The translations under genes and the position numbers were made by a program. A stretch of DNA of 64,000 nt from a virus. The notes below the pieces were generated by a model. The model was not told where the DNA came from. It was given only the letters and a program-made list of their open reading frames with translations, and ran no database searches. Below are positions 46,501-60,726 of the stretch, one piece after another. The stretch spans positions 6,359 to 70,358 of the IMG/VR virus record IMGVR_UViG_3300021197_000975. One strand, written 5' to 3'. The first letter of the stretch is position 1. Each line of letters starts with the position of its first letter.

Positions 46501-49500
46501 TTCGAAAGGTGTTCCCTGAGTTTACTGAAACCGTACAAGATTTCTTATACAATAACAGTAACAGAACAGATAAGACTTGGAACAGTAAGGTAGCAATAAT
46601 TGCAAACCTTGCTTGGCTTCTTGACAATACTAAAGCAACAACTGAAAATGCATTTCAGGCTGAAGGTAACGGTATCATCCATAATAAAAATTACATCGAA
46701 CAATACTCAAGAAGAGTTACTGAAGCTTCTAATCTTATTCGAAGTACATATGATAAGTCAACAGCTATGGGTATTGAACAGACGGCATTCTCTTTGCTGA
46801 TGGATCCTGAATATGTTCTTCCCACTACTCTTACTGAAGAACAAAAACAACATGCTACTATGCTGTCAGATATCTTTAGAGCTAACCATGGGCAATTACT
46901 TAACATGGCTAAGGACATGCTTCTTAGAAGAGAAGGAAGAGAAACACATTCCAGCAATCTTGCTCTTAGATTAAATAGAGATTTTCTTCTTAGACAAGAG
47001 GGAAGGCGTGAAGAATTCGTCACAGCACTTGCTAATAAGCAATCAAGAAAGTTGCAAGCTTCTCTAATCCCAGCAGGAACAATTGATTCTACTCTTGTTT
47101 ACATGAGTGGTCTTGTTCCGCGAGTTATAACTAATCCAGATGGGAACAGTGTTCACCCTGAGTTTATTAATGAACTGGTAAAATACACCCGTGAAGATGC
47201 TCCGGGTGCTTTGAAAGCACAGTTAAAAATACTTGATAGACTGGCCTTGGAACAATTCCAGAAGAGCAATAAGGACTTGGATAGTGAATTATTAGCTAAT
47301 GAATTTGATCCTGAGGGAGAGAACCATTATCACAATATGGCTATTTATTACCAAAGAGCGGTAGTCAAGTTACTTAAAGATACTACAAATAAAAAGATAA
47401 CTTATAACGAGTTGTTTGATAAGGGTAGATTAAGTCAAGGTGAGCGAGGAGCTATCTTTAATTATCTCCAGAACAGAACAAATGTTGTTGAAGATGGTGG
47501 CGGTACTCTTGATGCGGTAGGTCGCGCTTCAGATCTAAAGTCTGGGCTTGGTGACATATTTAGATTAAGACAGGACATCTCTTCTGATATTGATGTCTGG
47601 GCTGGTGTCTCTCCAGATGCTGCCAGAATGAAGACAGCTTATCTTTTAGCACAGGTTGGTAACTCTACCTTCATTCCCTATGAGGATGGAACAGAATTAA
47701 CTATTACTGATATCTTTGGTCCTGATCAATATGGCGATGAAAGAGAACATTCTATTGTTCAAGCTGGGTTTACTCGAGATCTTAGACAGATTATCCGAGG
47801 AACTCAACGTGGTCTAGGAGCTGCTGCCCACACAAGAAAGGTTATCAAAGAACTTACTGGCGTAAACATGGACTTCAAAAGAATAATTGGATCATTACGA
47901 AGATATCTAGATGAGTCCCCTTACGCTACTCATATTTCTGAATCCGTTGATTTTAATGGCTTAGATAAATCTACCGGCGACCAAAAAGCTTTCATTCAAA
48001 GAGGGCTCGCACATCTCGAAAGAGTATATGAAGTAGGGATGAACATTGGAAACAGAGTTGAAATTACAGATAGAGCCGCGTGGGATACACTAGCAAAGTT
48101 TGGTCCTGATATTTTGACATACGTCTGGGGTCCAAACCTTAATGCTGCTAACTTAATCTTTGAGGGCGGGTTGTCTGGATTAACTACAGCTATGTATGGT
48201 GGTAATCCTGTCCAACTTTACTCTGATATCCTTGGTAATACCTTCTCACTCATATGGAAACTACGAAAGGGAATGTCAAACTTAGAATTCACTGGGCAAT
48301 TGAGAGCTTTGGGTGATGCTATGTTTGATACTGATTCAGCCTTACGTGACTTTATGGAAAACGATGTCTTTGAAAATGATCAATTCTTTGAGGAAGAAGG
48401 AATTCCTTTAAATGAAAGAGGCCGTAAGGCTTACTCCGGTTGGATTAAGGGATTAAGAACCTATAATAATATATCTGCTATGGCTGTTAAGATGGCAACT
48501 ATGAAGCAGGGCCACCGTATTCTTATGAAGAATCAAGAAAAATTACGGGAAATGATAGAGTGGAATAATAATTATGACGGTCCTGATAATATGAACAAGT
48601 TCCATAAGATGAAGAAGGAACTTGGTTTAAGATTCAGGGGTGAGGTTGCACAGATGTTTATGGAATCTGGTCTACTTAAAGAAGATAGTGCAGATAAATT
48701 AGATTGGATTATGGCTAATGTTCCTATGGTTCGGGGGATGATAGATATGTCATCTCTTAGAGAACGTATTGAACAATCTCCTAATGCTACTATTACCCAA
48801 GGGAATTCTGAATTTGCACTTAAAGATCTTTGGGAGTTTGCAACATCTATTGAATTGTTTGCTGATAAGTATTCTCAGCTTTCTGTTGTGAAGTCAGATC
48901 CCCTTGATAAAGATGTGGATAGTAATGCTGCGTGGTATCTTAATGCTTTATACCGCCAGTTCCCTAACTTGTTTGTGGCCCAGCATATTCTCCGTAAGGG
49001 AGCAAGGCATGGTATGGGTCCGTATGCTATGACCCTTAGTGCAGGTGTTGTACTCGATCTTATTTACAACTTATTCCTTGCCGCCTTGTTTGGAATGATT
49101 GAGCCAAAGGATTTCTCACGCTGGGCAAAGGGAGACTTTGATACCTCTGATCTCCTCCTTATTGGTAGATCTATTGCTAGATTCCCCGGATTTGGTATCA
49201 GAGGTAATGCGGCTACTGAGGCAGCAATGGGATTGGGATATGGTATTGCTAAATATACTGGAGGCGACATGGATTTAGCTAGAGCAGGAACCTTAGCTAT
49301 GCCCCTGCCAGTAGTTGCTGGAATTCGTTGGATAGAGAATATGTGGGCTGGTGTAAACAATCCCCTCAAATACGCATTAGCTGATTCTTCTGCGGATAAA
49401 GAATACTGGCAAGAGAAGACAATACGGGACTATGTGATGGCGGCAAAGAGTATGATACCCGGATTGAACGATAGTATTCTTACTTCGGTTATGAATAACG

Positions 49501-49898
49501 CATGGGGAGAACCCGTGAAACCCGGAAAGAAGCAGAGAACTGGAACTCCTTATCCTGTTAATGCGCCTACAATTAAGACCATAGAGGATGAACTTAATAA
49601 TAATTCTGTAGAGGGATTATACAGAAGAGCATTTACGGAGATGAATCCTGAACTTCCCTCCATTATGCACCAGAGAGGGAGGAGGACAGCAGCGATGAAA
49701 GAAGCGGTTAGCAACTCCCTTCCTGCTATGGCCCCTCAGATCCCCTCTAAGGCATCTTCACCCCAACCCACCTTACCCCCCTCGGGAGATCCGAAAGCTC
49801 CTCAGACGCAGCCTCCGGCTCCCTCAGGGCAAGTTACAGGACGGAGTGAGGGAGATGCTGCAACCAATCCTATACAAGCCCCTGAAGGCTTGATCTAA
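37578..49898 (+). CDS. Giant 4106-aa internal virion protein: coiled coil, DEDDy exonuclease, candidate T7-family RNA polymerase domain and zincin (HExxH) motif
   Basis: SFDIET / TFNGNSFD / YLDAD; FDYKFNGLHHF..QDIY..RDAMKKIVIPRLYMGG; FAHEVVH...DEFLAE. AGGAG RBS. Confidence 0.7.
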   Translation: MSCSLNFLDDLKQKFIDQGNSEADANNMVEALKIASSDPRSFRKHVASEKLKETWTSENKADLQGLMNKVLKSKDGTLLFDSLNEEESQSLKYLLTKKMAKDNDQAPVVRPSNADVRIQAEQELETEIERLQEIGDDRGAARNQQALSHLQQIRKNNSRLGNQYESISESIDSRDRLREQLVLLDVWLRNVDDGNKKAEARIKEMNEQLKTIKDDKYNQAKADKKTYEKQIKKLKSELKSIKNKKSEPANKIKREIKEKEGKLKEAVAIIQKADREAGPLEKKINRIIEAARELSDKNPEVKKLRKAHSAAEKKLKDVMAELNKAGFASDGFLQSIVQGINTAVTARQLAEDLQRARQDEALRIELIDSYFDKNHKNYIKPKEEKETTLSRDILSEILGPSFVVSRTEYGQVLTREEIDVLLKEWRSLNYKYAGEHGLLIADLTFADQQSLEAMQEQSTNEGKSVDETDNNTIIIPMLTQAQAMEKSNPGVIPDANAQLTPQELKQRLLKFVRKLETLRSSVGYGKYVGLQHVEAVLNNMPGLDDVSAQIWFDDAVRVLNEEGIETLTHTERQETLRHILRLTGMTDAEISSLPEMIDYGRWLQDLDVHDKENPMPLNQVVSFDIETRGKNNEEIIGWSIKRIDGTIINSRTIGEAMTKEEAQEMLALLNDLQNDGYKVVTFNGNSFDMNTLGALAENQQMGVRIAYRSLDVMQILRTFKSQIHTEDDAQSLYFSLNNVSRALGMGGKFGTVGPEGSVLRNLGKWYYLVHKKATTGEDVTFADIVKNGETMAEEDAQSILDEINGMSSEEAASYLDQYLDADAMLPAQILYGNGAQDGLFNMMGRNVKIKSANKGEATVEIAAPTPTWALTSNVTEAKQDRWHGLEWARHVADIGEVMTSAFSSIDDTSIVSVDLDLAISRVYDAVIRAQHLDPSQRLLAERMVDLAKETLSKEQLLEKEKINIIQANRQALENIHKEEFETGENAGRYPIEFVGANKIRYTSGAIDAQKAEYTDSVVNGFITFIGKRKAVDLDIIAKDIGFRERAVNEGDKKFAEQIINYFITRFTPHQKFQLSDWGDGTIDYAPANSVGIAIAQIVTTQPEGARLRDNARDWMEGGAEEFSESAKSEDEAYKRETTFHPPIFDEVHQALPRSLAEVEWAYDDWRLRKRLEHILDPKHITTKEEALEVIQSLRDREENENDVIGDTRTPRMGLTPNVSNRLIWNKLPSLEEHTNMVLESMLDMPQILMTWVHDSVALGGDHQMFLDPDLAETYFEDNALSPGSMTGSALISGLGIQLAHTRAYPVISIDTVIQSLERGISAYGDHGTDVFAKGNYFDYKFNGLHHFLALMLQYSPQGAQKLDEFLAEWEPTAFLYKTSKEAQDIYDTAEELIFESLTNHIKNTQEGPKRSELQKLLNFMESDPSIRDAMKKIVIPRLYMGGIDAMKSGLKEKAREEGWDINTDLLAELAMGPIQATKLRVVDKALGGLTDSDRRQLADALVTMYGDIYDHGRWHEQYKDYVKENHSLMEGKEFALSDLQFAIQKRIEFMVEILTPKTANDGLKLRERKGKMLTLIQERFQGRIQKAIDFVNEKGGVIKNQEDMRQLHVIISGSESAWKTSGTLAAMNVMGRTGYRLRSGEKINETDTLLEAQRQIIGRHLTEEDLLNYPSHLVYFAVGQDSAGQRLYYHSNNWGVQPQNVPAAQVYRENTHKGEDDNPYGMWKMEHNNLASLSKEDAETEVMKLVARDLSVRMAGSHAPQFGGYSTRPLKVTKDNVKTPGDETREGFWRDLKKRSTEEDNAYVRALNEEANWISAEERMKAGVSMEGDAALIDKLKQRRKTTGLRRNATRNVLDPTRTLNRAQNEIYVPSQDASVKGLGAFRPQYADIPWAERGIMSMAEARSNFKIDRGYNGRIHKDALSKTPESIADVIPSSARGWQGKYQGSDAPYVHETPIDFIGEGILGAGRKRIARRAEGLKNVLEKFAVEKGLQHFSEKNDWTSLYVRWQVDKKITRPFLKEISALETSTGATRGSSRQQALLARANMLSSLTGLHQFHRDVSQQNMTLIEYGQMLGFHPEDLKKSAANPEEGNQAFYWADFFKLLANRGVTNLAPLTINIDANSLSPVNLTAEGNILMGGEMTATSKQTRIITLTVQHNEMSQVLFTLFYEQRGREIAQEYLQSKMSEAAYGRLKKDGAGFPMLSEVPMSFQTELMHRLIEDKELLSIAIDNMGLHIILDSYTNEALASIGPHNLDPDKTLRPGMLTGGLHNFAVNENAGMYGITPEIANSMLSSLRNTVVNNTAELVSITGSQMGQVESPSMRLRDQAKRDFYESQRDGFSDEMDALSYLHITNNVDPPKSVRNPKLKNEYGQPVVVYDAPHYFAKKDKTTGLNPVEEGFAGYIRSAALNARALGLETEGKLLAQILNPKSTLFRTKYLREAVVIIVEASGSKMDSLFKLEAFLPGNWTRADIEVLYNEATKVRKGSKMSIVDAYRIAASRTMERNTFISPARRYVELNGEIDELNISADFAAYIGADVSNPETLLQARAAARIANNSLKEVSSEVEAFSGMDDDISLMEISDPEGFWHKYGNEGSSITAQISSMVGENLITPETAAFLRQMMGVVLSHNNDFANGLSLIHDPEISRASIAEKYGDKYSIRINPDLIKRMPQAEIIKVFAHEVVHIARMKYMESGDRAWNSLVGVYSTENGRETMRGLITIMTNGDSNAVNDAMEYYTGNIDEFLAEWGAYYLMAKTLGNHTVVNEVQNLRNTDTTAEETMQWWDRAFNYIKRVMGSIHQKLSIMQQTNPEVYKEMSTIVDGLFNFDNAHELTGRPLAKNPNMRMGVAKHTRMGPDFGRPSDENSRINSLAEVISREKNLRNTGAESDTNHPRHEEWLAATETIRAEGLLDHDILGIPHSEYISTLHEMWDADTGEFKQPENDKEEMIMISYLLKQVARQRGERVDSPGTFGHLLRKVFPEFTETVQDFLYNNSNRTDKTWNSKVAIIANLAWLLDNTKATTENAFQAEGNGIIHNKNYIEQYSRRVTEASNLIRSTYDKSTAMGIEQTAFSLLMDPEYVLPTTLTEEQKQHATMLSDIFRANHGQLLNMAKDMLLRREGRETHSSNLALRLNRDFLLRQEGRREEFVTALANKQSRKLQASLIPAGTIDSTLVYMSGLVPRVITNPDGNSVHPEFINELVKYTREDAPGALKAQLKILDRLALEQFQKSNKDLDSELLANEFDPEGENHYHNMAIYYQRAVVKLLKDTTNKKITYNELFDKGRLSQGERGAIFNYLQNRTNVVEDGGGTLDAVGRASDLKSGLGDIFRLRQDISSDIDVWAGVSPDAARMKTAYLLAQVGNSTFIPYEDGTELTITDIFGPDQYGDEREHSIVQAGFTRDLRQIIRGTQRGLGAAAHTRKVIKELTGVNMDFKRIIGSLRRYLDESPYATHISESVDFNGLDKSTGDQKAFIQRGLAHLERVYEVGMNIGNRVEITDRAAWDTLAKFGPDILTYVWGPNLNAANLIFEGGLSGLTTAMYGGNPVQLYSDILGNTFSLIWKLRKGMSNLEFTGQLRALGDAMFDTDSALRDFMENDVFENDQFFEEEGIPLNERGRKAYSGWIKGLRTYNNISAMAVKMATMKQGHRILMKNQEKLREMIEWNNNYDGPDNMNKFHKMKKELGLRFRGEVAQMFMESGLLKEDSADKLDWIMANVPMVRGMIDMSSLRERIEQSPNATITQGNSEFALKDLWEFATSIELFADKYSQLSVVKSDPLDKDVDSNAAWYLNALYRQFPNLFVAQHILRKGARHGMGPYAMTLSAGVVLDLIYNLFLAALFGMIEPKDFSRWAKGDFDTSDLLLIGRSIARFPGFGIRGNAATEAAMGLGYGIAKYTGGDMDLARAGTLAMPLPVVAGIRWIENMWAGVNNPLKYALADSSADKEYWQEKTIRDYVMAAKSMIPGLNDSILTSVMNNAWGEPVKPGKKQRTGTPYPVNAPTIKTIEDELNNNSVEGLYRRAFTEMNPELPSIMHQRGRRTAAMKEAVSNSLPAMAPQIPSKASSPQPTLPPSGDPKAPQTQPPAPSGQVTGRSEGDAATNPIQAPEGLI

Positions 49899-49912
49899 TA
49901 AGGAGATTAATT

Positions 49913-50179
49913 ATGGCTAAGAAAAGAAAAAGTAAAGGTGCAATGAAGGGCTGCAATATCGGCAATGGTTGCAAAAGTAAATCGGGGGGGCTTACGGCTA
50001 AAGGTCGAAGAATGATCAATAAGAAAACTGGATCTAAGCTTAAGGCCCCTCAGCCCGGAGGAGGAGCTCGTAAGAAAAGTTATTGTGCCAGATCAGCAGG
50101 GCAGATGAAAAAGTTCCCCAAGGCTGCTAAGGATCCTAACAGCAGATTGCGGAAGGCACGTAGGAAATGGAAGTGCTAA
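49913..50179 (+). CDS. Small basic protein common in aquatic phages
   Basis: GGLTAKGR...LKAPQPGGG.RKKSYCARS.G...DPNSR..KARRKWKC; AAGGAG RBS. Confidence 0.8.
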   Translation: MAKKRKSKGAMKGCNIGNGCKSKSGGLTAKGRRMINKKTGSKLKAPQPGGGARKKSYCARSAGQMKKFPKAAKDPNSRLRKARRKWKC

Positions 50180-50274
50180 AATCGACTATAGGGGTCGAGA
50201 ATTTGGACGGGGGGAGTATAGCTTTGAAGTTGAAGCTATCCCCCAGTACCCCCCCTTCAAAGGAGATACATACC

Positions 50275-50457
50275 ATGTATCCAAAGAAAAGACCTGAGAA
50301 AGGCAAGCTCATTGATATCTTCTCTCATAATCCTCTCGTAAAGGGAGGACAGGGAAGGTCTGCCCAGCAGACTAAGGAAGATACAATCAGTGGTGCTATT
50401 GTGTGGACTGTATTCATTGCAGTCTTCCTTGTGGTGCTGATCATCGCAGCTGCCTGA
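50275..50457 (+). CDS. Small protein with a C-terminal transmembrane helix
   Basis: AAGGAG RBS before ATG 50275; IVWTVFIAVFLVVLIIAAA. Confidence 0.55.
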   Translation: MYPKKRPEKGKLIDIFSHNPLVKGGQGRSAQQTKEDTISGAIVWTVFIAVFLVVLIIAAA

Positions 50458-50464
50458 TCTCACT

Positions 50465-50516
50465 GACAATCTCAACGATGCTCTCTCAATCGAGAGAGTA
50501 TCTATTGGGATTCTCA
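50465..50516 (+). repeat. 52-nt structured repeat, copy 1
   Basis: GACAATCTCAACGA-[22-nt hairpin]-TCTATTGGGATTCTCA; flanks identical to 50871-50922. Confidence 0.9.
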
Positions 50517-50565
50517 CTCTGAGAATTCTGTGCTTAAACTAGGGCTTGGCCCTAAGGAGTTTGAC

Positions 50566-50862
50566 ATGTCACAGTATGACGAACTGGCAGCCCGCCTTGC
50601 GGTGCTCGAAGCTCGTGATCGTATGCAGCGTGCCATCTTGTCGATGGTGACTGACCCTGCTACGTGGCAATCATTGCTTGACTTCCATGCTGAGTGGAAG
50701 GACGAGCTCCAAGCAATCGGTAAGGTTCTCAATGCTTTCTTCGATACGGAGAATGTACCTGAGCAGCTTATCGATACCATCGTTGATGGAGTCAAGGGAC
50801 ATGTAGCAGTACATGAGACTTGGCTAGAACATCATCGAGAGGCTGGTCACCTCAGTCACTGA
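50566..50862 (+). CDS. Hypothetical early protein
   Basis: AAGGAG RBS before ATG 50566; lies exactly between the two 52-nt repeats. Confidence 0.7.
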   Translation: MSQYDELAARLAVLEARDRMQRAILSMVTDPATWQSLLDFHAEWKDELQAIGKVLNAFFDTENVPEQLIDTIVDGVKGHVAVHETWLEHHREAGHLSH

Positions 50863-50870
50863 ACGTGACA

Positions 50871-50922
50871 GACAATCTCAACGACACCCTCTCTTAGGAG
50901 AGGTTGTCTATTGGGATTCTCA
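50871..50922 (+). repeat. 52-nt structured repeat, copy 2
   Basis: Same flanks and length as copy 1; different but still self-complementary core. Confidence 0.9.
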
Positions 50923-51057
50923 TCCCACGGAGGAGAACGAAAGGACACAAGGACCACGCCTGCGGTGGGCAGGCCAGACAAACTATGCAAGGAAGCAAGC
51001 TTCACGCTGTAGCTCAACAGATCGTTCCAGTGCTACAGCGGAGCAATAGACAATAGC

Positions 51058-51110
51058 TGCGGTAGACAGTAGGCGTGTCACTGCCTGCCGCACATTCTCC
51101 TGAGACACGC
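51058..51110 (+). promoter_or_regulatory. H-type pseudoknot in the leader of the divergent polymerase gene
   Basis: Stem 51058-70/51080-92; loop GCGTGTC is complementary to GACACGC at 51104-10. Confidence 0.6.
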
Positions 51111-51135
51111 GATAACTTTGGAAAGGAGGTTTGTC

Positions 51136-53046
51136 ATGATGGCAGACCGCACCAAAGTAGTGAGTGCTTTGACAAAGCCCGTATCAACGATATGGGATTT
51201 CGTCCACACTCTTCACACCTTCTGCAACATCCCGTTGCAGGAGGCTGGCGATCTCATGTTCGCCTTGGCTCACGATGGAACCATCGAGCTGTTCAACGTA
51301 GCAGACGATGAATCCAGCAAGACCACCACATATGTAGTTAATACACATGTGGCAAGTCGAGCCTTTGGACTTGATGGGGAATGTCGCCTCATCAGGTGTG
51401 ACGAGAACAAGCGTATCCCATCCCTCGGGGCGGGCGGGCGTCTTGGCTCTTTCCACTTGCCACCCATGTTGGCGAAGGCTATGGATCACAATGATTCCCA
51501 GCGGTTTATCATGCACACCGGGATGCTCGATATCTATCGACGCATCAAGGATGGCATGTCCCGCGAGGATGATTCCAAGAATGTGATCTGGACCCGTCGC
51601 CGCAACAGGATGGAACTGCTACTGGTTACGGAGTTCGAGACCCATGGTCCCGGCCCTTATCACCAGATCGGTACACCCGAGGCAGCATTCCGGCTCCATG
51701 TTCTGGCTTCCACTGCGGGCATTGCGTCCCATCAGGGAAGTGGTTGGCATCGTGCAGTGTGCGACTTCGCTCTTCGGTACGGAGCACCCAAGGGCAGTGA
51801 CGAGTGGGATCACGGTATGTACATCCTTGAACAGGAGTACAACGTGAACACCAGCAACTACGCCAAGATTCTCGAGGCAGGTTGCAGCTTGGATCTGTTC
51901 CTTAATCCCGCCAAGTACGAGCACATGCTCGGCACCACTGACGGGGCCAAGTTGGCCGAAGCTGTTCGCGCTGCGTTCTGCATTCATGAACTGCTGACTG
52001 AAGGATCCACCTCTTACATCTTCGGTAAGGACCGCAACTCCTGTGGTCCCGCCGATATGTCCCGTATGATCGGCTGCCGCGATCTCGCTACAGCTACGAA
52101 CATGATCTACTCGGGCAAGGAGGTGAACTTCGCAGCTGAAGTTCTCAAGTTTGTCGGCAAAAAGATTGCAGTGACTGACTCCATGTTGCCTTACGAGGAT
52201 CTCATCCTCGATCCCAAGGCAACTGGCAAGCCCTGCCTTCAGCCCATCCAGTACACGGCCTCTGCGGCTAGTGCGTCCCGTGCTCTTGTCTTTCGCAAGG
52301 GCAAGGGGGATGATGTCCATTACTTGGACGCTGCTGACATGTACATTCCCGGCTCTCTGGATAAGGTTGCTGAATGCGACCTCAACCAGAAGTGGCTCCA
52401 CGTTCACAAGGAGCTGGGTTGGGAGAAGAGCATTGCTCTTACCATTGAGACTGCAAGCTGCATCGAAGAGGCCTTCCACATGCTTTCCCACGGGAGGGCA
52501 CGAACGGCTGGTCAGATCATGAAGAAGGCAGTTGAAGTATGCAATGAGAATAAGACGTACCTCACATGGCCGACCGTCATGGGAATTGATTTCGTCTATC
52601 GGCCCACTGAACTTGATTACAGTGTGCTCGAAAAGGATGACGATGGCAACATCGTCAAGGACGAACGCATCAAGATCTCAGGTCGAGTGAATGGCAGGAG
52701 GAAGCAGTACAAGCTGTACCCGACTGTCACTGAAGCTCGTAGCTCAGGAGCCTTGGCTGCTGTGCTGCGTGTGAAGGATGCGGAACAGAATGTCCTGTAT
52801 AACTGCGAAGCCAGTGATGCAGGTATTCCCACCGCCAACACTCACGACAAGTTCGGCACAGCCCTTGGCTGCCTTGGTTTCGTGAACGAGGTGATCACCC
52901 GGAATGCAAAGACCGGGACCGATGCCAACTTCTTCAACGAGATCATTGACAGGTACGAACTGCCTTTCAACCACTTCACGCCACTGCGGCCTGAAGAGTT
53001 GGATGGCAAGCACATGCTGGACGGCACTCCGCCTCATCTGGCATGA
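51136..53046 (+). CDS. Highly divergent single-subunit (T7-family) RNA polymerase paralog, N-terminally shortened
   Basis: Colinear matches to the in-window RNAP: HQGSGWHRAVCDFA, KDRNSCG (motif A), KATGKPCLQPIQY (B), WPTVMG, KDAEQ, THDKFGT (C). AAGGAGG RBS. Confidence 0.8.
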   Translation: MMADRTKVVSALTKPVSTIWDFVHTLHTFCNIPLQEAGDLMFALAHDGTIELFNVADDESSKTTTYVVNTHVASRAFGLDGECRLIRCDENKRIPSLGAGGRLGSFHLPPMLAKAMDHNDSQRFIMHTGMLDIYRRIKDGMSREDDSKNVIWTRRRNRMELLLVTEFETHGPGPYHQIGTPEAAFRLHVLASTAGIASHQGSGWHRAVCDFALRYGAPKGSDEWDHGMYILEQEYNVNTSNYAKILEAGCSLDLFLNPAKYEHMLGTTDGAKLAEAVRAAFCIHELLTEGSTSYIFGKDRNSCGPADMSRMIGCRDLATATNMIYSGKEVNFAAEVLKFVGKKIAVTDSMLPYEDLILDPKATGKPCLQPIQYTASAASASRALVFRKGKGDDVHYLDAADMYIPGSLDKVAECDLNQKWLHVHKELGWEKSIALTIETASCIEEAFHMLSHGRARTAGQIMKKAVEVCNENKTYLTWPTVMGIDFVYRPTELDYSVLEKDDDGNIVKDERIKISGRVNGRRKQYKLYPTVTEARSSGALAAVLRVKDAEQNVLYNCEASDAGIPTANTHDKFGTALGCLGFVNEVITRNAKTGTDANFFNEIIDRYELPFNHFTPLRPEELDGKHMLDGTPPHLA

Positions 53047-53159
53047 TTCACCTTGACGGGTGACTCTCCGGGGACGGGCAGGCTGGGAGAAATCTCAGTC
53101 TGTCTATTAGATGTCTAGTTGTTAGATATCTATTTATTAATCTCACTGGAGATAAAACA

Positions 53160-53606
53160 ATGAACAATGGAAACAACGCAAGGTACTTCTACCTCGAGGA
53201 GGTGGAGTCACCTCACCGGAAGTTCTTCTTCACCTCATTCGGAGACCGGGTGGGTGTGAAGTTCGTGGACGCAATGCCCGAAGAGCTTCGTGAAGGTGCG
53301 AAGATATATGATCTTATTACCTTCCTGCCCATGTGTGAGCAGTCAGGGTACAAGGTCGTACAGAATCGCTGGACTTCCAAGCATATCCGTCTGACGAAGT
53401 TGGATGGGATCTGGAAGGCCAAGGTTGTGGCTGTTCACCCTCTGGCCGACAAGCCTCTTCACGCCACCTTTGGTGGTGAGACGATGCGAGATGCCCTCTC
53501 CAACTTCTGGCTTGGGTGGAACCAGAAGGTAGTGAATGAGTATGGACACCTCAATGTCCACACTCACATCATCTTCACCGAACCGAAGAAGTACCTCGAG
53601 TGCTGA
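53160..53606 (+). CDS. Hypothetical early protein
   Basis: GGAG RBS; 148 aa; codon style matches the island. Confidence 0.7.
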   Translation: MNNGNNARYFYLEEVESPHRKFFFTSFGDRVGVKFVDAMPEELREGAKIYDLITFLPMCEQSGYKVVQNRWTSKHIRLTKLDGIWKAKVVAVHPLADKPLHATFGGETMRDALSNFWLGWNQKVVNEYGHLNVHTHIIFTEPKKYLEC

Positions 53607-53617
53607 TGCACTGATTA

Positions 53618-53648
53618 CAAGGCCCCTTGCAAAGTGCTTGGGGCCTTG
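53618..53648 (+). terminator. Hairpin immediately after the gene (possible terminator or processing site)
   Basis: CAAGGCCCC/GGGGCCTTG 9-bp stem; poor U-tract. Confidence 0.4.
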
Positions 53649-53664
53649 ATCTCTAGGCATCTCT

Positions 53665-53870
53665 ACGTAACCCTAGATAACCCAAGTATCACGTAGCCCA
53701 TCATAACACAGGATAGCCCTAGAGGTAGCCCTAAGTCGGCCCAGAGTAGCCCGAGGTAGCCCTAGAGGTAGCCCTACAGGCAGGTAGCCCCGTGGTATCC
53801 CCTAAGTAGCCCCCAAGTAGCGGGGTAAGGGGGTATCCATAGGCCTACCTGCTTTTTTCGTAGCCCAACC
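53665..53870. repeat. Array of degenerate short GTAGCCC repeats
   Basis: About 8 TAGCCC copies plus variants (GTAACCC, GTATCCC), often 10-12 nt apart. Confidence 0.9.
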
Positions 53871-54105
53871 CAAGACGGAACGCTTCGCTGACCATCTCTT
53901 GCCTTCGGCACACGCGGAACACACTCCCAGTTGCTCCCGAATGCCAGCGGGGGTAAGCCCGTGGCATTCTGGGCAGTTTGTGAACATGTGTCACCGAGTA
54001 GGGATCTTTCGGGATCTTCTTGGTGACAGGTTGGAAGAGTCATCGTCCAGCCGTCCCCGTTGTGGGGAAGAAATGATGACGTACTCTTCGGAGGACTTGG
54101 AATCA

Positions 54106-54339
54106 ATGGCGAAGACCACTGATACCAAGCAGTCCACCAGCCCCAATGGATTCACTCGAATCCGTGAGGCTAAGGTGTCCCTTGAGGCCCAATACGCTGA
54201 GCGTGTTGAGGCTTGGGATGACGCCACGGTAGACCACTGCCTCGATATGATCGATGAAGGACGCATGCGCGTTCCCTTCAAGGTCCGTATCGTGCGTGCG
54301 TCTGCTGTCAAGCGTGGACTCGCCACTAATAACGGTTAA
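54106..54339 (+). CDS. Hypothetical early protein (MAKTTDTK...)
   Basis: GGAGG RBS at ~54090; biased codons; upstream extension unlikely. Confidence 0.6.
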   Translation: MAKTTDTKQSTSPNGFTRIREAKVSLEAQYAERVEAWDDATVDHCLDMIDEGRMRVPFKVRIVRASAVKRGLATNNG

Positions 54340-54344
54340 TCCGT

Positions 54345-54965
54345 TGTTGGGCCTCGCCTAGCGGGGTGGTGGTGTTTAGCACACCCGGCAGTAGCACTGG
54401 CTGTCGTTATGTCCTCAGTGCTTTTCTTTATGCTCTCTCCTTCGGGAGAGGGTGTAGAGAAAATGAGTTAGGTTGGAACCAACGGATCTCCCGTGAGCAG
54501 GTGCTTGCAGGGCTGCAACCCGGTGAAGGTGGCGACTGCCCCTCCATGGGAGATCCATTCCAACCGCAACGAGCAGCAGACGGGATGCAACTGCAATAAC
54601 AACATCCCAATTCGGGTGCTGGAGTGTGATGATGTCCGCCATTGACCAGCATACTATGAAGAGGCGGGTCCGGCTAAAGAAGGCAGCCGTGAGGTGGATA
54701 GGGGACGAATCGCCAGCCTTTACTTATGGAGACCTGAAGCCAGATCGTATGCTGGAACAGGATAAAGATAGCGCCTCTGTCTTAGGCGGGAACTGCTGGG
54801 CATGGTGAGAGGATACTCTCTTTGGATACGGTACACGCCGGTTACATGTAGGTAGATAAACCGTGGCCCGTAGCACGAAGAAATCGGGGCGGTACGGACC
54901 TTTGCTGTGAAGACGTTACCAGTAAAACAGCATGTGCCTGAGTATGCACGTAAATAACTACTCCA
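54345..54965 (+). ncRNA. Candidate large structured non-coding RNA
   Basis: No credible ORF; many nested helices with G-U pairs, a cUUCGg tetraloop and a terminal pseudoknot. Confidence 0.6.
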
Positions 54966-54973
54966 ATCTAATA

Positions 54974-55077
54974 GGGGGACCTAGGCATGCTCTACGATGT
55001 CCTGAGGTTGCTTGTGCTGGTTCAGGAGCCAAGATAAGTAACTTATGTCGTATCGGGTTCGAATCCCGGCCCCTCCT
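54974..55077 (+). ncRNA. tRNA-like element 1 (non-canonical)
   Basis: T-arm CGGG-TTCGAAT-CCCG and an imperfect G-rich/C-rich acceptor stem; a long hairpin replaces the anticodon arm. Confidence 0.55.
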
Positions 55078-55084
55078 AACCTAT

Positions 55085-55190
55085 GCCCTGCCGTGGCTTG
55101 GCTAAATTCTACGTGTCTTTGATAAGTAATTGGTCGTAGAAGATGAAAGTCAAAAGACTAGAGAGGTTCGACTCCTCTCGGGGCTTACCA
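55085..55190 (+). ncRNA. tRNA-like element 2 (non-canonical, encoded CCA)
   Basis: GCCCTG/CGGGGC acceptor, AGAGG-TTCGACT-CCTCT T-arm, variable hairpin AGTC-aaaa-GACT, 7-bp stem with a 21-nt loop, 3' ACCA. Confidence 0.6.
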
Positions 55191-55480
55191 TATCACGATG
55201 AGTCGTGCGTTAGTATAGAGCGTGAGACTATACCCAATGCAGAACTGGATTAGCGGGGGTGTCAGAGGTCTGTTGAGGTTTGAGTGCTACCAAGAGTCAG
55301 AAAGCATTACACGATTTTAGGTCTTGAGTTCGACACAAAACGGCTCGGGCTTGTGAGCTAAGGATCGTATCCTTCCCTGACTGCGAAATAACGTGAGGTC
55401 GATGGGTGGTGTAAGCATGACAACACACACGAGTTTCTTATGTATTACAAGGAGAACATATGATAATTCCAAACATGTTC

Positions 55481-55509
55481 TTGATCGGTGCTAGGTTATA
55501 TATTATACT
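55481..55509 (+). promoter_or_regulatory. Putative host sigma70-type promoter
   Basis: TTGATC-N17-TATACT upstream of the early gene run that leads to the RNAP. Confidence 0.45.
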
Positions 55510-55638
55510 AGAGCCCATCAGAATGACTCTTTGTTGAACCATATGGACAAGCCTAGACTGTAGTGATGGTGTGTAGTGGCTAGGATGAGGTCAGGGAGGC
55601 CAAGAGTAGCAATCTCCCCAGCATACAAGGAGGTGTCT

Positions 55639-55803
55639 ATGACACAAGATAATTACGATAGATACTACAAGTATCTCAATCTGCTCTCTGCCTACGGTCG
55701 TGAGGGTGAAGTGAGCGATCTTGTCGAGCACTTCAATGTCTCTAAATATGAGGCATTCAGAATTATAATGAATTGGGCTGAGTCCCAGAAGGAGTCTGAC
55801 TAA
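55639..55803 (+). CDS. Small hypothetical protein
   Basis: AAGGAGG RBS before ATG 55639. Confidence 0.65.
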   Translation: MTQDNYDRYYKYLNLLSAYGREGEVSDLVEHFNVSKYEAFRIIMNWAESQKESD

Positions 55804-56153
55804 TGGGTATGGATGTGTATGGTGCTAACGAAGGTACTTACTTTCGTGCTAATTGTTGGGGCTGGAGACCTATCGTTGAAGCCATCTGGGCAGCAGATAA
55901 GGGTGAACTCTTTAGTGAAGACCTGCTGTCTCGTATGGGATACAATGATGGTGCTGGCCCTACCTGTGAACATAGTTGTAGGCAGTTGGCTGACAAATTG
56001 GAACACTGGACCAATGAGAACGTAGAAGATACGTACTCTCCAGATGTGTTCCTTGAGGAAGATGGAACCAACTACTACGGAACAAGCAAAGGCCACCTTC
56101 TTGAGTTTGTCGCATTCCTTAGGGAATGTGGTGATGGATTTGAAGTGTGGTAA
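55803..56153 (+). CDS. Conserved hypothetical phage protein (MGMDVYG...YFRAN.WGWRP type)
   Basis: TAATG coupling; ends FLRECGDGFEVW. Confidence 0.75.
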   Translation: MGMDVYGANEGTYFRANCWGWRPIVEAIWAADKGELFSEDLLSRMGYNDGAGPTCEHSCRQLADKLEHWTNENVEDTYSPDVFLEEDGTNYYGTSKGHLLEFVAFLRECGDGFEVW

Positions 56154-56214
56154 CTTAGGTATACTATAGTTATATAGTTAATATAGTTATATAACTATAG
56201 TCTAATACCCAAGT
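56153..56214. repeat. AT-rich palindromic element with TATAGTTA repeats
   Basis: Perfect 18-bp palindrome at 56182-56199; inverted repeat 56163-75/56189-201. Confidence 0.8.
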
Positions 56215-56246
56215 ATATAGACAAAGGTTAAAACTAAGGTATTACT

Positions 56247-56489
56247 ATGACTGATGAAAAGGAAAGAGGCCCCCTCTCAGACATGAAGACTGAGCAACTG
56301 ATGGTTGCTCGTGTTCTCTTCGATGCTCTAAAGGATGTACTCAAACAAGGAATAGATGGCGATGATTTCGACTCAGAGTTTCATGACAATCTTGAAAAAA
56401 TCGAAGAAGAAATTTCAGAAATTGATGTCGAACTACTCACAAGAGATGACATCCCAGACCCAGATGATGGAGATGGATCAATACTGTGA
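56247..56489 (+). CDS. Hypothetical acidic protein
   Basis: ORF with AAGG RBS; very D/E-rich. Confidence 0.65.
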   Translation: MTDEKERGPLSDMKTEQLMVARVLFDALKDVLKQGIDGDDFDSEFHDNLEKIEEEISEIDVELLTRDDIPDPDDGDGSIL

Positions 56490-56668
56490 CGAGCCAAATG
56501 AATATGAACGAGATGAAAGTTACTCAAATTGGTATTCGTCTAGAGACTCTCTTGAATGAGGGTAAGATTCTAGACTATACCTCCGATGGATGGCTAAGGA
56601 TTCATGATAAATGGGTTCCTTGGCAAATAGGATTCAAGCAATTAGGAGATAAAAATGATTGCAACTAA
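56486..56668 (+). CDS. Hypothetical protein
   Basis: GTGA overlap; fills the gap before the next gene. Confidence 0.5.
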   Translation: MTSQMNMNEMKVTQIGIRLETLLNEGKILDYTSDGWLRIHDKWVPWQIGFKQLGDKNDCN

Positions 56669-57611
56669 TTTTGGTAACACCGTTACCTCAACTAATCACT
56701 CTGAAATTCTTGATCAAGCTGGTCTTGATTGGGATGTAGAGATGAGTAGTGGTATCGGTGGTACACTCTCAGATGGTACGCCCATCTACACTTCCAAGAA
56801 GTGTGCTGTAGTACGTAAGGATACCAACGATGTGCTTGGTATCGTGAGCCCTGACTATCAGGTAGTTCAGAATGAAGAGTTGGCATACATGGCATCGCAA
56901 CTGCATGGTACTAATGTTAAAGTTAGTAGTGGTGGCGAACTTATGGGTGGCAGCCGAGTGTTCTTGTGCTTGGAACAACCATCGTTTAACGTTGGCAATG
57001 GAGTAGATGATGAGGTTAAGCCTTATCTTGTGCTTGCTAATGGTCACGATGGTAAGTTCTCATTGCATGGACTTGGCACTACTATCCGTGTCTGGTGTGA
57101 CAACACACTGAATGCTGCTATGAAAGAGGGAAGGAAATCTAATAACCTTATCTCTATCAGACACAAGGGAAACATGTCCTCAAAGATTGAAGATCTTGTT
57201 ACTGCCCTGCGTGTTGTTAATAAGCAGACTGAAGATCTGAAGGAAGCATCCAACGCTATGGCACGCTATCAGATGACTTCGAAGAGTGTGAATGATTATT
57301 GGGATGATGTCTATGCTAGGTTCATTGATACAATTCCTAATACTGTTCAAACAAAAGAAGAACTCAGGCAACATAACCGATGGGCTTCAGTTAAGATGAA
57401 GTTCTGGGATGTGTTTGATAAAGAAGCATCTGCACTAGGTTCAAACCTATGGACTGCATTCAATGCTATTACTAATCACATTGATCACAATACTGTGTAT
57501 CGTGGTGACAATGGTAACAAGGCAAAGAATAAATTCTATGGGAACATCTATGGAAACGCGGCAAGTAAGAAGAAGCAGATTCTTCTGCATAGCCTTGACT
57601 CCATACGTTAA
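56655..57611 (+). CDS. DUF932/DUF945 family (phage/plasmid-like TIGR03299-type) protein
   Basis: AGLDWDVE, VVRKDT..VLGIVS..Y.VVQN, GGSRVF, NGHDG, IRVWCDNTL, IRH.G, LWTAFNAIT. Confidence 0.88.
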   Translation: MIATNFGNTVTSTNHSEILDQAGLDWDVEMSSGIGGTLSDGTPIYTSKKCAVVRKDTNDVLGIVSPDYQVVQNEELAYMASQLHGTNVKVSSGGELMGGSRVFLCLEQPSFNVGNGVDDEVKPYLVLANGHDGKFSLHGLGTTIRVWCDNTLNAAMKEGRKSNNLISIRHKGNMSSKIEDLVTALRVVNKQTEDLKEASNAMARYQMTSKSVNDYWDDVYARFIDTIPNTVQTKEELRQHNRWASVKMKFWDVFDKEASALGSNLWTAFNAITNHIDHNTVYRGDNGNKAKNKFYGNIYGNAASKKKQILLHSLDSIR

Positions 57612-57622
57612 CTCTAAACCAA

Positions 57623-57665
57623 GGGAGAGCAGGGATTTAATCGCGAGTAAGCGCCCTGCTCTCCC
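57623..57665 (+). promoter_or_regulatory. Strong intergenic hairpin (12-bp perfect stem)
   Basis: GGGAGAGCAGGG/CCCTGCTCTCCC; no U-tract. Confidence 0.5.
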
Positions 57666-57679
57666 GCTCCCATTGGAGG

Positions 57680-57871
57680 ATGATTATGTATTTAAAAGTA
57701 GAGACAACTGTAACACGAATCATTACATACTATTACAATGATGATGGACACCTGTCTGTTGTTGATTCTACTGATCCAATATCTAATCATACTATTCTGG
57801 AAATGAGACATGAAGAAACGATTACCAACACAATTCCCAAGCAACCCTCAAGTTTACTTGTTAGGATATAA
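57680..57871 (+). CDS. Hypothetical protein
   Basis: GGAGG RBS; 63 aa. Confidence 0.5.
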   Translation: MIMYLKVETTVTRIITYYYNDDGHLSVVDSTDPISNHTILEMRHEETITNTIPKQPSSLLVRI

Positions 57872-58304
57872 GACTGAGTATTCTAGTTATGTGGATAGAA
57901 TATTATCCCATCCAAGGCACACACATCTTGCTGTTCAAGTAGGAGATTGGTGCTATCATATCACAACTGATGCTACTCCTGATAACTCTAAGGCTTATTG
58001 GGTTAGTGAAGAAGTTAGTAATAGACTGTGGAAAAAACCACTCACAAAAATACTAGTAGGGACAACAGATAAGAAGTGGGAAGACATTGTAAACTTTAGT
58101 TTAAACTGGTCTTCGCCGTTGTATCTAACACTCATTACTTATTTTACCTTTAGATTATTTAGGTGGAAGAAGGATTGTGTTACTTACTCTAGAAAATATT
58201 TAGAGTATCTTGTAGGAATAAAGATTAAGCATCCGCATTCCGTAACCCCAGATGGTTTTATCAAGGAGATATTAAACTGTGGGTATAAAAACTCAATGGT
58301 ATGA
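57810..58304 (+). CDS. Putative permuted papain-like (NlpC/P60 superfamily) enzyme
   Basis: His motif HTHLAVQVG precedes Cys motif DCVTY...VTPDG, the permuted order. Confidence 0.5.
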   Translation: MKKRLPTQFPSNPQVYLLGYKTEYSSYVDRILSHPRHTHLAVQVGDWCYHITTDATPDNSKAYWVSEEVSNRLWKKPLTKILVGTTDKKWEDIVNFSLNWSSPLYLTLITYFTFRLFRWKKDCVTYSRKYLEYLVGIKIKHPHSVTPDGFIKEILNCGYKNSMV

Positions 58305-60726
58305 ACTGACTCCCGAGGAGCAGTCACACCGTATCAATTTACAAAAGGTATTTGAAGAAGAACTTTTGACTAGTGGTGTCGAGCGTTACTGGAAAGATTG
58401 GGAACGATCAACAGATGAAGGGAAACCTGAACAGCTGTTGCTTGAAAGTTCCGTGATCCACCTTGCTCCATACTATCAGAAGTGGATTGATGTGGCGGTA
58501 AGCCATAGAAAATCTCCTCTTTGGTTACCTCCATTGTTATCTTTAGGTGCTGCTAAGATGGCTGATCTAACTATAAGATCTGTACTCAAAACATTTCTTA
58601 CACGAGCCACTGTATCGAAGTTATCTATTGGCAATGGGATGCCGTTCAACGCTCCCACTGCGCAAGCAATATCTAAACAGATTGCTGATGATGCTATTGC
58701 TATCATCTCTTATCAACAAGCTAAAGATTTATTTAAAGAAGATTGGATGAGGCAGTCTAAGTTTATTAAAAACTGGACACCTAAAAGATGCAAAGCTTTT
58801 ACTGATAAAGTGGCTACTATTAGTGAGTATACACACAAACAGAAGGAAGACTTTGGTCACAACATGTTACGTGTTGCACTTCAATCTGATATATTGACAT
58901 CTAAAATTGTATTTACAGGAGCTAGACGTAAAGCATTGATGGTAAGCCTTGCTCCTAAGATTCTAGAAGAGCTGTCAAATAGGCATGCTCTACTTGAAAC
59001 TGCTAGCATGGTGTATAGACCTATGATATCTCCACCTGTTCTTCATACTAAAGAAGAAGATGGTGGGTTCTTGTCCCCTTGGATAAGAAAGAAGATGATT
59101 AAAAGATACCATCCTATTGGATCTGATCCTAAAGAATGGAACTCTAAACCAAGTCAACTTGTGTTGGATGGTTTAAATGCTCAGATGGAAACTGAATGGA
59201 CAGTTAACTCTAAGGTTCTTGATGTTATGGAAAAGTTTTTCTATAATGATTACCGAGAAGCTAATGTTCCTTCATATACATTCAAAGATCATGCATTCAA
59301 TCGACCTTACCCTGAAGAAGGAACCAAGGTTGACCAAGCCAAGTGGATTCAAGAAGCCAATGAGTCTTGGGGTGAGTGGTATAAAGAAGAACAAACTCGT
59401 AGTCGTATGCTTGTTAGACTAAGATTAGCTAGGAAGATGGAAGACTTTGATTTCTTTTATATGCCATACACATTAGACTTTAGAGGTAGAGCTTACTCAG
59501 TATGTGAGTTACTCTCTTGTCAGGGTGTAGACTTTGACCGATCCTTGATTACATTTGCCACACCTATCAAACAAACTGAACGTGGTTTGTTCTGGCTTAA
59601 GGTACATGTAGCAAACTTGTTTGATCAAGATAAGGTTAGCTTCGAAGAAAGAGTTCAATGGGTTGATGATAACATGGATCTTCTTAAGGAAATGAATGAT
59701 GATCCGCTTGGTAACAGAGGTTGGGTATCAGATGCAAAGAAAAAGAACAAGTCGTTTCAAAGACTGGCTTCTATCTTTGAGTTGTTCCGTACTGATGGCA
59801 TGACTCAGTTACCTATCCAATTAGATGGCAAGAACAACGGTGTTCAACACTGGAGTGCTATCCGTAGAGATAGGAAGCTCGCTGTTCTTACTAATGTTAT
59901 TCCAAGTGCGACGAATAACGATCTATATCAGTATGTTGCGGACAAGACCTATCATATTATGATTGAGAATGAAGACAACAGAGATTGGTATGATAAATTT
60001 ACAACGTATTGGAACGATGGTCTTCCTCGTAGTGTACCTAAAAGAAGTACTATGTGTGATGCATATGGTCTTACCTTCTTTGGTATGCAGAAGTATGTTA
60101 AGGAAGAAGGACACGTTGATTGGGTTGATCGTGATGATCGAGGTGGTGCTATTGTAGAACTATCTAGAGCATTGCAAGAAGGACTAAGTACTACAATGCA
60201 AGAGCCTAACATAGGTAAACAATACTTGCGTAGTGTTGCTCGTATCTTAAATGATATGAACCTCCCTCTTGTATGGACTACACCTAGTGGGTTCACTGTT
60301 CAACATGTATACAATCAGGTCATTGAAAGAGTTAGTTATGCTGAGCTTTTCAATAGAACTTCAATAACTTTCGCAGCTTTAACCGAAGAGTTGGATAGCA
60401 AGGCACAGTTCTTAGCTATTAGTCCTAACTTTATTCATAGTATTGATGCTGCACATATGTTTTTAACTATACATAGGATGATTATGGAACACAATATAGA
60501 TTCCTTTTCTTTTATTCATGATTCTTTTGGGACGTATGGTCCTAACATAGATGCCATGTCTAAAATTATTAGGGAAGAATTTATCAGAGTACATAGGGTT
60601 AATCCTTTGGAACAATTTAAGAAAGACATAGAGGAAAGATATGAGATCATACTCCCAGATGTCCCAGAAAACACAGACGACTTCAACATCGAAGATGTCA
60701 TCGAGTCGGAATACATCTTTGGATAA
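58279..60726 (+). CDS. T7-type single-subunit DNA-directed RNA polymerase
   Basis: PMISPP, LDFRGRAY, LDGKNNGVQH (motif A), RSVPKRSTMCDAYG (B), PNFIHSIDAAH, IHDSFGT (C), C-terminal YIFG. Confidence 0.97.
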   Translation: MGIKTQWYELTPEEQSHRINLQKVFEEELLTSGVERYWKDWERSTDEGKPEQLLLESSVIHLAPYYQKWIDVAVSHRKSPLWLPPLLSLGAAKMADLTIRSVLKTFLTRATVSKLSIGNGMPFNAPTAQAISKQIADDAIAIISYQQAKDLFKEDWMRQSKFIKNWTPKRCKAFTDKVATISEYTHKQKEDFGHNMLRVALQSDILTSKIVFTGARRKALMVSLAPKILEELSNRHALLETASMVYRPMISPPVLHTKEEDGGFLSPWIRKKMIKRYHPIGSDPKEWNSKPSQLVLDGLNAQMETEWTVNSKVLDVMEKFFYNDYREANVPSYTFKDHAFNRPYPEEGTKVDQAKWIQEANESWGEWYKEEQTRSRMLVRLRLARKMEDFDFFYMPYTLDFRGRAYSVCELLSCQGVDFDRSLITFATPIKQTERGLFWLKVHVANLFDQDKVSFEERVQWVDDNMDLLKEMNDDPLGNRGWVSDAKKKNKSFQRLASIFELFRTDGMTQLPIQLDGKNNGVQHWSAIRRDRKLAVLTNVIPSATNNDLYQYVADKTYHIMIENEDNRDWYDKFTTYWNDGLPRSVPKRSTMCDAYGLTFFGMQKYVKEEGHVDWVDRDDRGGAIVELSRALQEGLSTTMQEPNIGKQYLRSVARILNDMNLPLVWTTPSGFTVQHVYNQVIERVSYAELFNRTSITFAALTEELDSKAQFLAISPNFIHSIDAAHMFLTIHRMIMEHNIDSFSFIHDSFGTYGPNIDAMSKIIREEFIRVHRVNPLEQFKKDIEERYEIILPDVPENTDDFNIEDVIESEYIFG

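Follow-up and report, generated by a model that had tools for sequence, protein, structure and literature searches.

A short, divergent T7-type RNA polymerase encoded upstream of the normal one in a marine phage genome

Introduction

A second, short RNA polymerase (RNAP) encoded alongside the typical one has been described in a group of marine phages. According to the available parts of PMC12361551 (Commun Biol 2025), 23 marine Autographiviridae members of AG-10.1, a group without a cultured member, encode an additional RNAP of ~650 amino acids (aa); its gene, with small unknown ones around it, follows a gene for a protein of 3274-5566 aa and precedes that of the typical ~800-aa RNAP. PF00940 was found in four of these giant genes and an RNase_H domain in eight, and the authors suggest that the additional RNAPs came by horizontal transfer and that labour is divided, with different RNAPs serving different genes. 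In this study, we analysed a gene for a short RNAP in a 64,000-nucleotide stretch of phage DNA (hereafter the window), which covers bases 6359-70358 of the 70,358-base IMG/VR record IMGVR_UViG_3300021197_000975, rated 100% complete. We hold with moderate confidence that its product is a fast-evolving, N-terminally reduced T7-type RNAP that works as a transcriptase for a gene set or infection stage other than that of the normal RNAP in the same genome.

In T7 RNAP (883 aa), the first ~290 residues hold the promoter-binding domain, the AT-rich recognition loop and the intercalating hairpin. A precedent for the reduction of this part is RNAPII of phage N4, which the available parts of PMC4496689 describe as a minimal T7-type RNAP needing gp1 and gp2; PMC3821669 and PMC4819975, as far as they are available, bear only on the virion RNAPs of N4-type phages.

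The locus follows the layout described for AG-10.1, with three genes in the same order here and in relatives of the window phage:

51136..53046, plus strand: coding sequence of the short ('mini') T7-type single-subunit RNAP, 636 aa from ATG, recognised from the open reading frame (ORF) list, the family search, alignment A1 and the structure model.
58279..60726, plus strand: normal T7-type RNAP, 815 aa (PF00940, E 3.4e-76), 5.2 kilobases (kb) downstream of the short RNAP.
37578-49898: giant virion-type protein, 4106 aa, with RNase_H_2 and SprT-like matches, upstream of the short RNAP.

The length of ~640 aa and the limited identity to typical RNAPs agree with what the available parts of PMC12361551 say of the additional RNAP, as do the RNase_H_2 match of the giant protein and the marine source, since the sequencing runs that contain window sequence are seawater metagenomes. 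The window copy differs from the published set in being too divergent for PF00940, and the likeness drawn here is one of description. The class as such is thus already in print, as far as those parts of the paper go, and the window copy is an unusually divergent member of it. What is added here are cryptic members, fast evolution by vertical descent, a conserved island rich in guanine plus cytosine (GC), above all at third codon positions (GC3), and a downstream ORF that is likewise conserved; of the high-GC island, the downstream ORF and the motif changes, no mention was found in the available parts of that paper.

Family membership and predicted fold

The frame of the short RNAP runs uninterrupted on the plus strand from a TTG at 51118 to 53046, which gives 642 aa, and residue numbers below follow this count. 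The ATG at 51136, proposed as the start in the original prediction, is well placed behind a ribosome-binding signal:

51124..51130, plus strand: Shine-Dalgarno-like AAGGAGG, five bases 5' of the ATG at 51136, from sequence reading.

This ATG is therefore the likely start, with a 636-aa product, and database copies of the protein measure 635-636 aa.

Direct searches with the window protein return very little. It matched no Pfam family at E <=10 and nothing in PHROGs, its matches to PDB sequences were at chance level (E 0.31 or worse), a word-indexed search of 5.8 billion proteins found only the protein itself, and there was no tblastn match among 50,697 phage records. A PF00940 scan across the whole record detected the 815-aa RNAP only. 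BLASTP between the two RNAPs of the window was not significant either; the two best high-scoring segment pairs (E 0.14 and 0.42) are collinear and correspond to motifs A and C. The six blocks that had been aligned by hand between these two proteins are thus below statistical detection by themselves, although the segment pairs coincide with the motif A and motif C blocks. An alignment with MAFFT recovered the DxxGR, motif A, motif B and motif C blocks and the first block fits T7 residues 294-350, whereas the LTWPTVMG block reappeared only in a low-scoring BLASTP match.

Relatives provide the link that the single sequence does not. A full HMMER search from the window protein, covering 1.84 billion representatives, gave 19 matches down to E 7e-4, mostly of 574-632 aa and including a 172-aa fragment 89% identical to the window copy; the nearest relative, P0003, matched at E 6.5e-73 with 34-35% identity. 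In an 18-row alignment of short RNAPs that includes the window copy (A1), 16 rows match PF00940 (best E 5.8e-31), the window row not being among them, and the consensus contains T7-type words (YILQQDQTCSGxQ, K..P..YGA, PPNxIHSxD and PIHDSxGT). The A1 profile finds T7 RNAP at E 7.3e-34 (120 bits) and mitochondrial RNAPs at about 1e-28 to 3e-32, and is more distant from the two N4 RNAPII chains (6dt7; E 1.2e-9 and 2.7e-7, 40.2 and 32.4 bits). Homology to the PF00940 family is therefore established, at the level of sequence comparison, through intermediates and a profile, and the assignment to the phage-type family made in the original prediction stands by this route though not by a direct PF00940 match. 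The profile has just ~78 positions before the stretch that aligns to T7 residue 294. Judged from this alignment, roughly the first 290 residues of T7 RNAP have no counterpart and most of the T7 N-terminal domain is absent from the short RNAP, as had been proposed.

Structure prediction gave the same picture. AlphaFold on the single window sequence produced no usable model (predicted local distance difference test, pLDDT, 33.7), while AF2 supplied with alignment A1 gave a pLDDT of 84.0 and a predicted template modelling score of 0.84. Foldseek searches of PDB with the latter model ranked yeast and human mitochondrial RNAPs and T7 RNAP at the top (E ~1e-14; template modelling (TM) scores of about 0.57-0.62 by query length), and VIA-align superposed it on a T7 elongation complex with Z 30.9 over 481 residues at a root-mean-square deviation of 4.0, against Z ~19 for the N4 mini-vRNAP. 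In the model, palm, fingers and thumb can be superposed on those of T7 and mitochondrial RNAPs, in agreement with the polymerase fold expected from the motifs. Since the model was built on the family alignment, what it shows is the fold of the family.

The best structural match in BFVD was the RNAP of phage phiEcoM-GJ1 (648 aa, Chaseviridae; E 3.7e-16, TM 0.62/0.61), and hhalign of A1 against this protein gave a probability of 98.8% (E 7.8e-17, 434 columns). An identity of 15-17% is too low for close kinship. In its own genome this RNAP is annotated as gene number one, phage promoters are marked downstream of it, and the first 12 kb of the record contain no other annotated RNAP; we take it to be the sole RNAP of that phage. 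This match indicates that short single-chain RNAPs of such size exist in cultured phages. Taken with the profile and the model, we consider it almost certain that the window protein is a true member of the single-subunit RNAP family.

Catalytic and substrate-binding residues

Residues were mapped on a MAFFT alignment of T7 RNAP, three normal RNAPs and 21 short RNAPs, which places the following features in the window:

51679..51699, plus strand: DxxGR-motif region, E188-A-A190-F-R192-L-H194, in which only the second Arg (T7 R425) is retained.
52030..52047, plus strand: motif A core, D305-R-N-S-C-G310 (T7 D537...G542), with D305 and G310 invariant in 21/21.
52216..52257, plus strand: motif B / O-helix, K367-x3-K371-x7-Y379-T380 (T7 R627, K631, Y639, G640), from the residue map.
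52768..52779, plus strand: R551-V-K-D554 (T7 H784...D787), with His changed to Arg and Asp retained.
52843..52860, plus strand: motif C, H576-D577-K-F-G580-T (T7 H811-D812-S-F-G-T), from A1 and the residue map.
53026..53043, plus strand: six-residue C-terminal extension TPPHLA, past the family end of the alignment and found in the window copy only.

Both metal-binding aspartates (D305 at 52030 and D577, T7 D812, at 52846) and the motif-B Lys and Tyr (K371 and Y379, T7 K631 and Y639, within K367-T380 at 52216-52257) are present in all 21 short RNAPs, and the places and the retention assigned to them in the original prediction were correct. R192, D554 and G580 are likewise invariant, and H576 (T7 H811) is found in 20 of the 21.

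Around this core, several positions have changed. The window copy and P0003 share D421E (E188), R423A (A190), Y427H (H194) and R627K (K367), and carry Arg (R551 in the window copy) at the position equivalent to H784, where 19 of the 21 short RNAPs have His. G640T (T380) is found in these two, in P0004 and in three cryptic copies (L058, L059, L065), while S813K (K578) is confined to the window copy; the majority of the family has R, G, H and S at the equivalents of R627, G640, H784 and S813. The changes at R423, R627, G640 and the QH after motif A had been noticed before, whereas those at H784 and S813 and the C-terminal extension had not. The QH is variable throughout the short-RNAP family, so that its absence from the window copy means little. 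At the column of the C-terminal alanine of T7 RNAP (A883), 16 of the 21 have Gly, mostly as their last residue.

Several of R627, G640, H784 and S813, together with the free C-terminus of T7 RNAP, matter in nucleotide binding, and H784 together with Y639 governs 2'-OH discrimination. Five divergent copies (the window copy, P0003, L058, L059 and L065) combine Tyr-Thr in place of Tyr-Gly with loss of the H784-like His and with HD(K/A) in motif C, while P0004 has Tyr-Thr but retains the His. From these residues, the Tyr-Thr members without His may have changed nucleotide handling. It is a larger step to suppose that the short RNAP has a changed substrate or template, that is, that it uses deoxynucleoside triphosphates or modified nucleoside triphosphates or copies RNA, and we consider this very unlikely. 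The Arg and Thr at the equivalents of H784 and G640, and the recurrence of Tyr-Thr with His loss in the five divergent copies, are what such a change might look like, but the tyrosine that selects ribonucleotides is kept in 21/21. No Rfam family and no tRNA was detected anywhere in the window, the surroundings of the gene included. None of the results gives support to the primase-like action, RNA templating, DNA pulling or dedication to neighbouring RNAs put forward in the original prediction.

Conservation of the locus and vertical descent

The short RNAP is a regular component of related genomes. Of the related records with a completeness of at least 64%, 8/8 carry the two RNAPs on one strand, the normal one with 809-836 aa and the short one with 595-697 aa; two more records are fragments, one (G005) ending just past the short gene and the other (G010) with the normal RNAP cut at the contig end. 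The conserved order is giant protein, DUF6321, island with the short RNAP, DUF932, an ORF of ~160 aa and normal RNAP. A survey of the slot was anchored on the normal RNAP, and thus had no bias for the short one, and took in the 20 loci with at least 8.8 kb of upstream sequence. In 18 of them, a frame of 434-722 aa lying 4.2-8.3 kb upstream of the normal RNAP matches the A1 hidden Markov model (E <=1e-3). The remaining two (L058, L065) have frames of 663-666 aa in the slot with weak collinear matches (E 3.6e-5 and 1.3e-3, filters off), so that the slot is occupied in 20/20. These two belong with a third protein:

L058 1955-3952, L059 547-2436 and L065 936-2924: cryptic proteins in the short-RNAP slot, 630-666 aa.

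The three are nearly invisible to the family profile and 32-63% identical to one another, yet they carry DxRGGR, D..G, K-x7-Y-T, D and HDA. On these sequence features, they form a second cryptic lineage.

A quick maximum-likelihood tree of 27 rows, with support from the Shimodaira-Hasegawa approximate likelihood ratio test (SH-aLRT) only, separates the 15 short RNAPs from typical ones by a branch with SH-aLRT 98. For the 10 genomes compared, the order (G008,G009), (G006,G007), (G003,G004), (window,(L002,(G001,G002))) is identical in the short and normal subtrees, and among the 45 genome pairs those nearest by normal RNAP are also nearest by short RNAP. The shared topology implies that the short RNAP gene was already present in the ancestor of the clade. 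Identities differ widely between the two proteins. The normal RNAP of the window is 62-66% identical to those of the five nearer relatives and 30-52% to the other four, while short RNAPs stand at 23-29%; against L002, L003, L005 and L006 the values are 64-66% for normal and 25-27% for short RNAPs. The window short RNAP is sister to P0003, with a path length of 2.13 compared with 0.86 in the sister group, whereas the normal RNAPs of the same two lineages have path lengths of 0.30 and 0.27. Read from these trees, the short RNAP was inherited vertically alongside the normal one and evolves several-fold faster, fastest in the window lineage. This differs from the horizontal transfer suggested in the available parts of PMC12361551, in that the trees favour vertical descent of both RNAPs together within the clade.

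Recent constraint is visible among strain variants. Seven strain-level proteins, 89-100% identical, vary at 50/636 positions and all keep the frame intact. Variation touches just two of the 106 positions with a family conservation of 60% or more, compared with 48 of the 530 others (Fisher p 0.009), and the gene is thus under recent purifying selection. One sequencing run contains a variant with 113 differences across ~2007 bases of the gene; were this the P0023-type protein, dN/dS would be roughly 0.2, a figure on which no conclusion is based here. Because strain variants spare the conserved positions, the gene has diverged in step with the normal RNAP and the slot is filled in 20/20 loci, the short RNAP is not a decayed copy, in agreement with the original prediction.

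The retained residues bear on whether the enzyme works. Several points weigh against a working polymerase in the window phage. The protein has no Pfam, PHROG or PDB sequence match of its own, and its fold assignment leans on the family alignment because there was no direct match and the single-sequence fold failed. Of the 46 positions conserved in at least 80% of the family, 13 differ in the window copy, including two Gln before the motif-A Asp and the equivalents of H784 and S813; R627 is replaced by Lys and G640 by Thr; and the C-terminus is six residues longer, whereas most relatives stop at the Gly aligned with the foot. The branch of the window short RNAP is ~2.5x that of its sister while the normal RNAP branches are equal, which could mean relaxed constraint. 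Given the changed residues and the extended C-terminus, activity could be weak or lost. The same points, with the R423 change, would fit a pseudo-polymerase in the lineage of the window copy and P0003, which would keep the fold and nucleic-acid binding but have lost efficient catalysis and would act as a regulator, such as a factor binding promoters or RNA, or as a decoy or partner of the normal RNAP. We regard this as unlikely. The window copy and P0003, only 35% identical, both keep the metal Asp pair and the equivalents of K631, Y639, H811, D787, G542 and R425, and D..G, K-x7-Y, D and HD persist even in the three more divergent syntenic copies. Retention of exactly the catalytic residues is not expected of a non-catalytic protein, and strain variation spares the conserved core. 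Going by its sequence, the window short RNAP is rather probably catalytically active.

The early region and its neighbours

The short RNAP lies in a segment whose composition stands out from its surroundings:

49500..55200, no strand assigned: high-GC island holding the short RNAP, GC 0.46-0.58 compared with ~0.40 around it.

A high-GC island recurs in 7/7 related loci (L002-L008), against a background GC that differs between loci from about 0.30 to 0.47. Third codon positions account for most of the excess, with GC3 of 0.61-0.81 in short RNAPs, 0.31-0.53 in normal RNAPs and 0.12-0.40 in the giant gene (in L006, 0.61 in the short RNAP compared with 0.12 in the giant gene), and the short RNAP exceeds the normal RNAP in GC3 by at least 0.10 in 16 of 18 loci. 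Such a pattern suggests that the early region is under a pressure acting at the level of nucleotides. The high GC of the gene itself (0.54, compared with 0.385 for the normal RNAP) would at first sight suit a recently acquired foreign gene, a variant of the published transfer idea (PMC12361551, available parts), and a second polymerase might also be a decaying duplicate of the resident RNAP. Both are extremely unlikely. The island is present in all seven loci whatever their background GC, the topologies of the two RNAPs agree, the slot is filled and the frame is intact also in strain variants; the conserved island, concordant trees and filled slot place any transfer before the origin of the clade.

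The record is T7-like in its order, with an early island followed by the normal RNAP, a metallophosphatase, RusA, a primase-helicase (Toprim + DnaB_C) and a family A DNA polymerase, and further on ribonucleotide reductase, portal, capsid and giant internal proteins. In the presumed early region, the short RNAP comes first among the large genes, after the structural module, and this position suggests expression early, ahead of the normal RNAP. Sigma-70-like promoters are no more frequent in 49800-58400 than chance would give (12 compared with 11.2 expected).

A second gene accompanies the short RNAP:

53160..53606, plus strand: ORF of 148 aa directly 3' of the short RNAP, candidate cofactor or partner.

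An ORF of ~150 aa is found directly 3' of the short RNAP in 7/7 loci compared, and these proteins (family A6) share a C-terminal core, W..HP.GD..VT..GP..EA..FW..WN..HTH. Neither the window ORF nor A6 has a Pfam or PDB match (best PDB E 0.21), and against PHROGs there was one match only, at E 0.005 in one of the seven members. The family does not resemble the N4 cofactors, with hhalign probabilities of 0.2% against gp2 and 0.1% against gp1, a comparison made for this ORF family only. When the short RNAP (A1) and the product of this ORF (A6) were predicted as a complex, the score was 0.00, which speaks neither for nor against binding.

On the other side of the short RNAP, the giant virion proteins of the clade have RNAP-like motifs, like gp50 of N4. 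In the window giant, D-x4-G-x-H and R-x3-K-x7-Y columns are invariant in 5/5 aligned homologues (near 41589 and 41856-41903), the giants of two relatives, L032 and L033, match PF00940 weakly (E 1.1e-6 at 22.3 bits, and E 1.1e-4), and one of these giants shows SIDGSQNGVRH and RKFAKKPVMVLPYGAG. No RNAP domain was found in the 4106-aa giant of the window by PF00940, by PDB searches with a 1000-aa segment or by a five-sequence profile.

Several other elements of this region were observed. Direct repeats of ~81 nucleotides (nt) at 50436-50516 and 50842-50922 have identical flanks around a covarying hairpin of 6-7 base pairs and lie on either side of a 110-aa ORF shortly before the short RNAP gene; there are only two copies in the window, and a hairpin word like theirs occurs again at 54430-54450. 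The T7 early region contains RNase III sites, and the repeats could be promoters, RNase III sites or terminators. Between the downstream ORF and the next one, tandem GTAGCCC-like units fill 53696-53776, in two copies of 38 nt that are 79% alike. The summed depth of contigs over 54623-55430 and 55829-56000 was, in one seawater run, 2-6x that of the rest of the island, and several contigs join over stretches of 111-239 nt near 55074-55314; this non-coding stretch appears to be common to many related phages at >=80% identity, with length variants. DUF6321, a small basic protein encoded at 49913-50179 just after the giant gene, is ~70% identical in L003 and L005, close to the 65% of the normal RNAP and far over the 25-44% of the short RNAP and DUF932, and its 3' part reached very high summed depth in 4/4 runs.

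Proposed role in infection

The most likely role of the short RNAP is that of a cofactor-dependent, stage-specific transcriptase, although we regard stage specificity taken by itself as evenly balanced. It would carry out DNA-dependent RNA synthesis from a gene set, or at a stage of infection, distinct from that of the normal RNAP. Because the promoter-binding and DNA-melting N-terminal domain of T7 RNAP is missing, the enzyme probably depends on a helper protein, or else on a promoter that is pre-melted or structured. Precedents for helper dependence are mitochondrial RNAPs, which work with factors, and N4 RNAPII with gp1 and gp2 (PMC4496689, available parts). The latter (gp15 of 269 aa and gp16 of 404 aa) resembles the short RNAP, as far as those parts describe it, in its truncated N-terminal part, its place in the early region, its status as a second phage polymerase and its cofactor dependence. 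It differs in being a heterodimer, whereas the short RNAP is a single chain from an uninterrupted frame.

T7 RNAP acts at the primary origin of T7 and mitochondrial RNAP at mitochondrial origins, and a short RNAP might similarly make primers or open an origin rather than make mRNA. The absence of the promoter-binding domain would suit such an enzyme, as would an unusual replication set-up, AG-10.1 members being without an SSB gene (PMC12361551, available parts). The record, however, has a primase-helicase of the T7 gp4 type (Toprim + DnaB_C) and the family A DNA polymerase, and the short RNAP gene lies in the early region, outside the replication module. With its own primase-helicase, and with the early position of the gene, the phage would not need the short RNAP as a primase, and we consider a replication or priming enzyme a very improbable reading.

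For the stage-specific transcriptase, a more elaborate scheme may be drawn, which is speculative and in our view unlikely as a whole. It combines the strategies of N4 and T7 in a relay of three polymerases that does without host RNA polymerase, with altered nucleotide handling in the variants that have Tyr-Thr and no His. An RNAP domain in the ejected giant virion protein would first read the GC-rich island, perhaps from the conserved repeats with hairpins (50436-50516 and 50842-50922). The chief product of that island, the short RNAP, aided by the ~150-aa protein as specificity or melting factor, would then read the middle genes including the normal RNAP, and the normal RNAP would read the late genes.

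Significance for marine phages

Surveys based on domains undercount the second polymerase of a ubiquitous group of marine phages, as the slot is filled in 20/20 loci while the window copy is without PF00940. The window copy and three further copies are barely detectable by sequence, and a Pfam-based survey would miss the window copy. In place of the horizontal acquisition proposed in the available parts of PMC12361551, the comparison made here gives vertical evolution within the clade, accelerated several-fold. Short single-subunit RNAPs are also possible compact enzymes for in vitro transcription, and the Tyr-Thr variant without His could have useful nucleotide tolerance. The GC island at synonymous sites is kept in phages of very different base composition, and together with a catalytic core held through extreme divergence and a conserved adjacent small protein it makes the function of this second polymerase testable.

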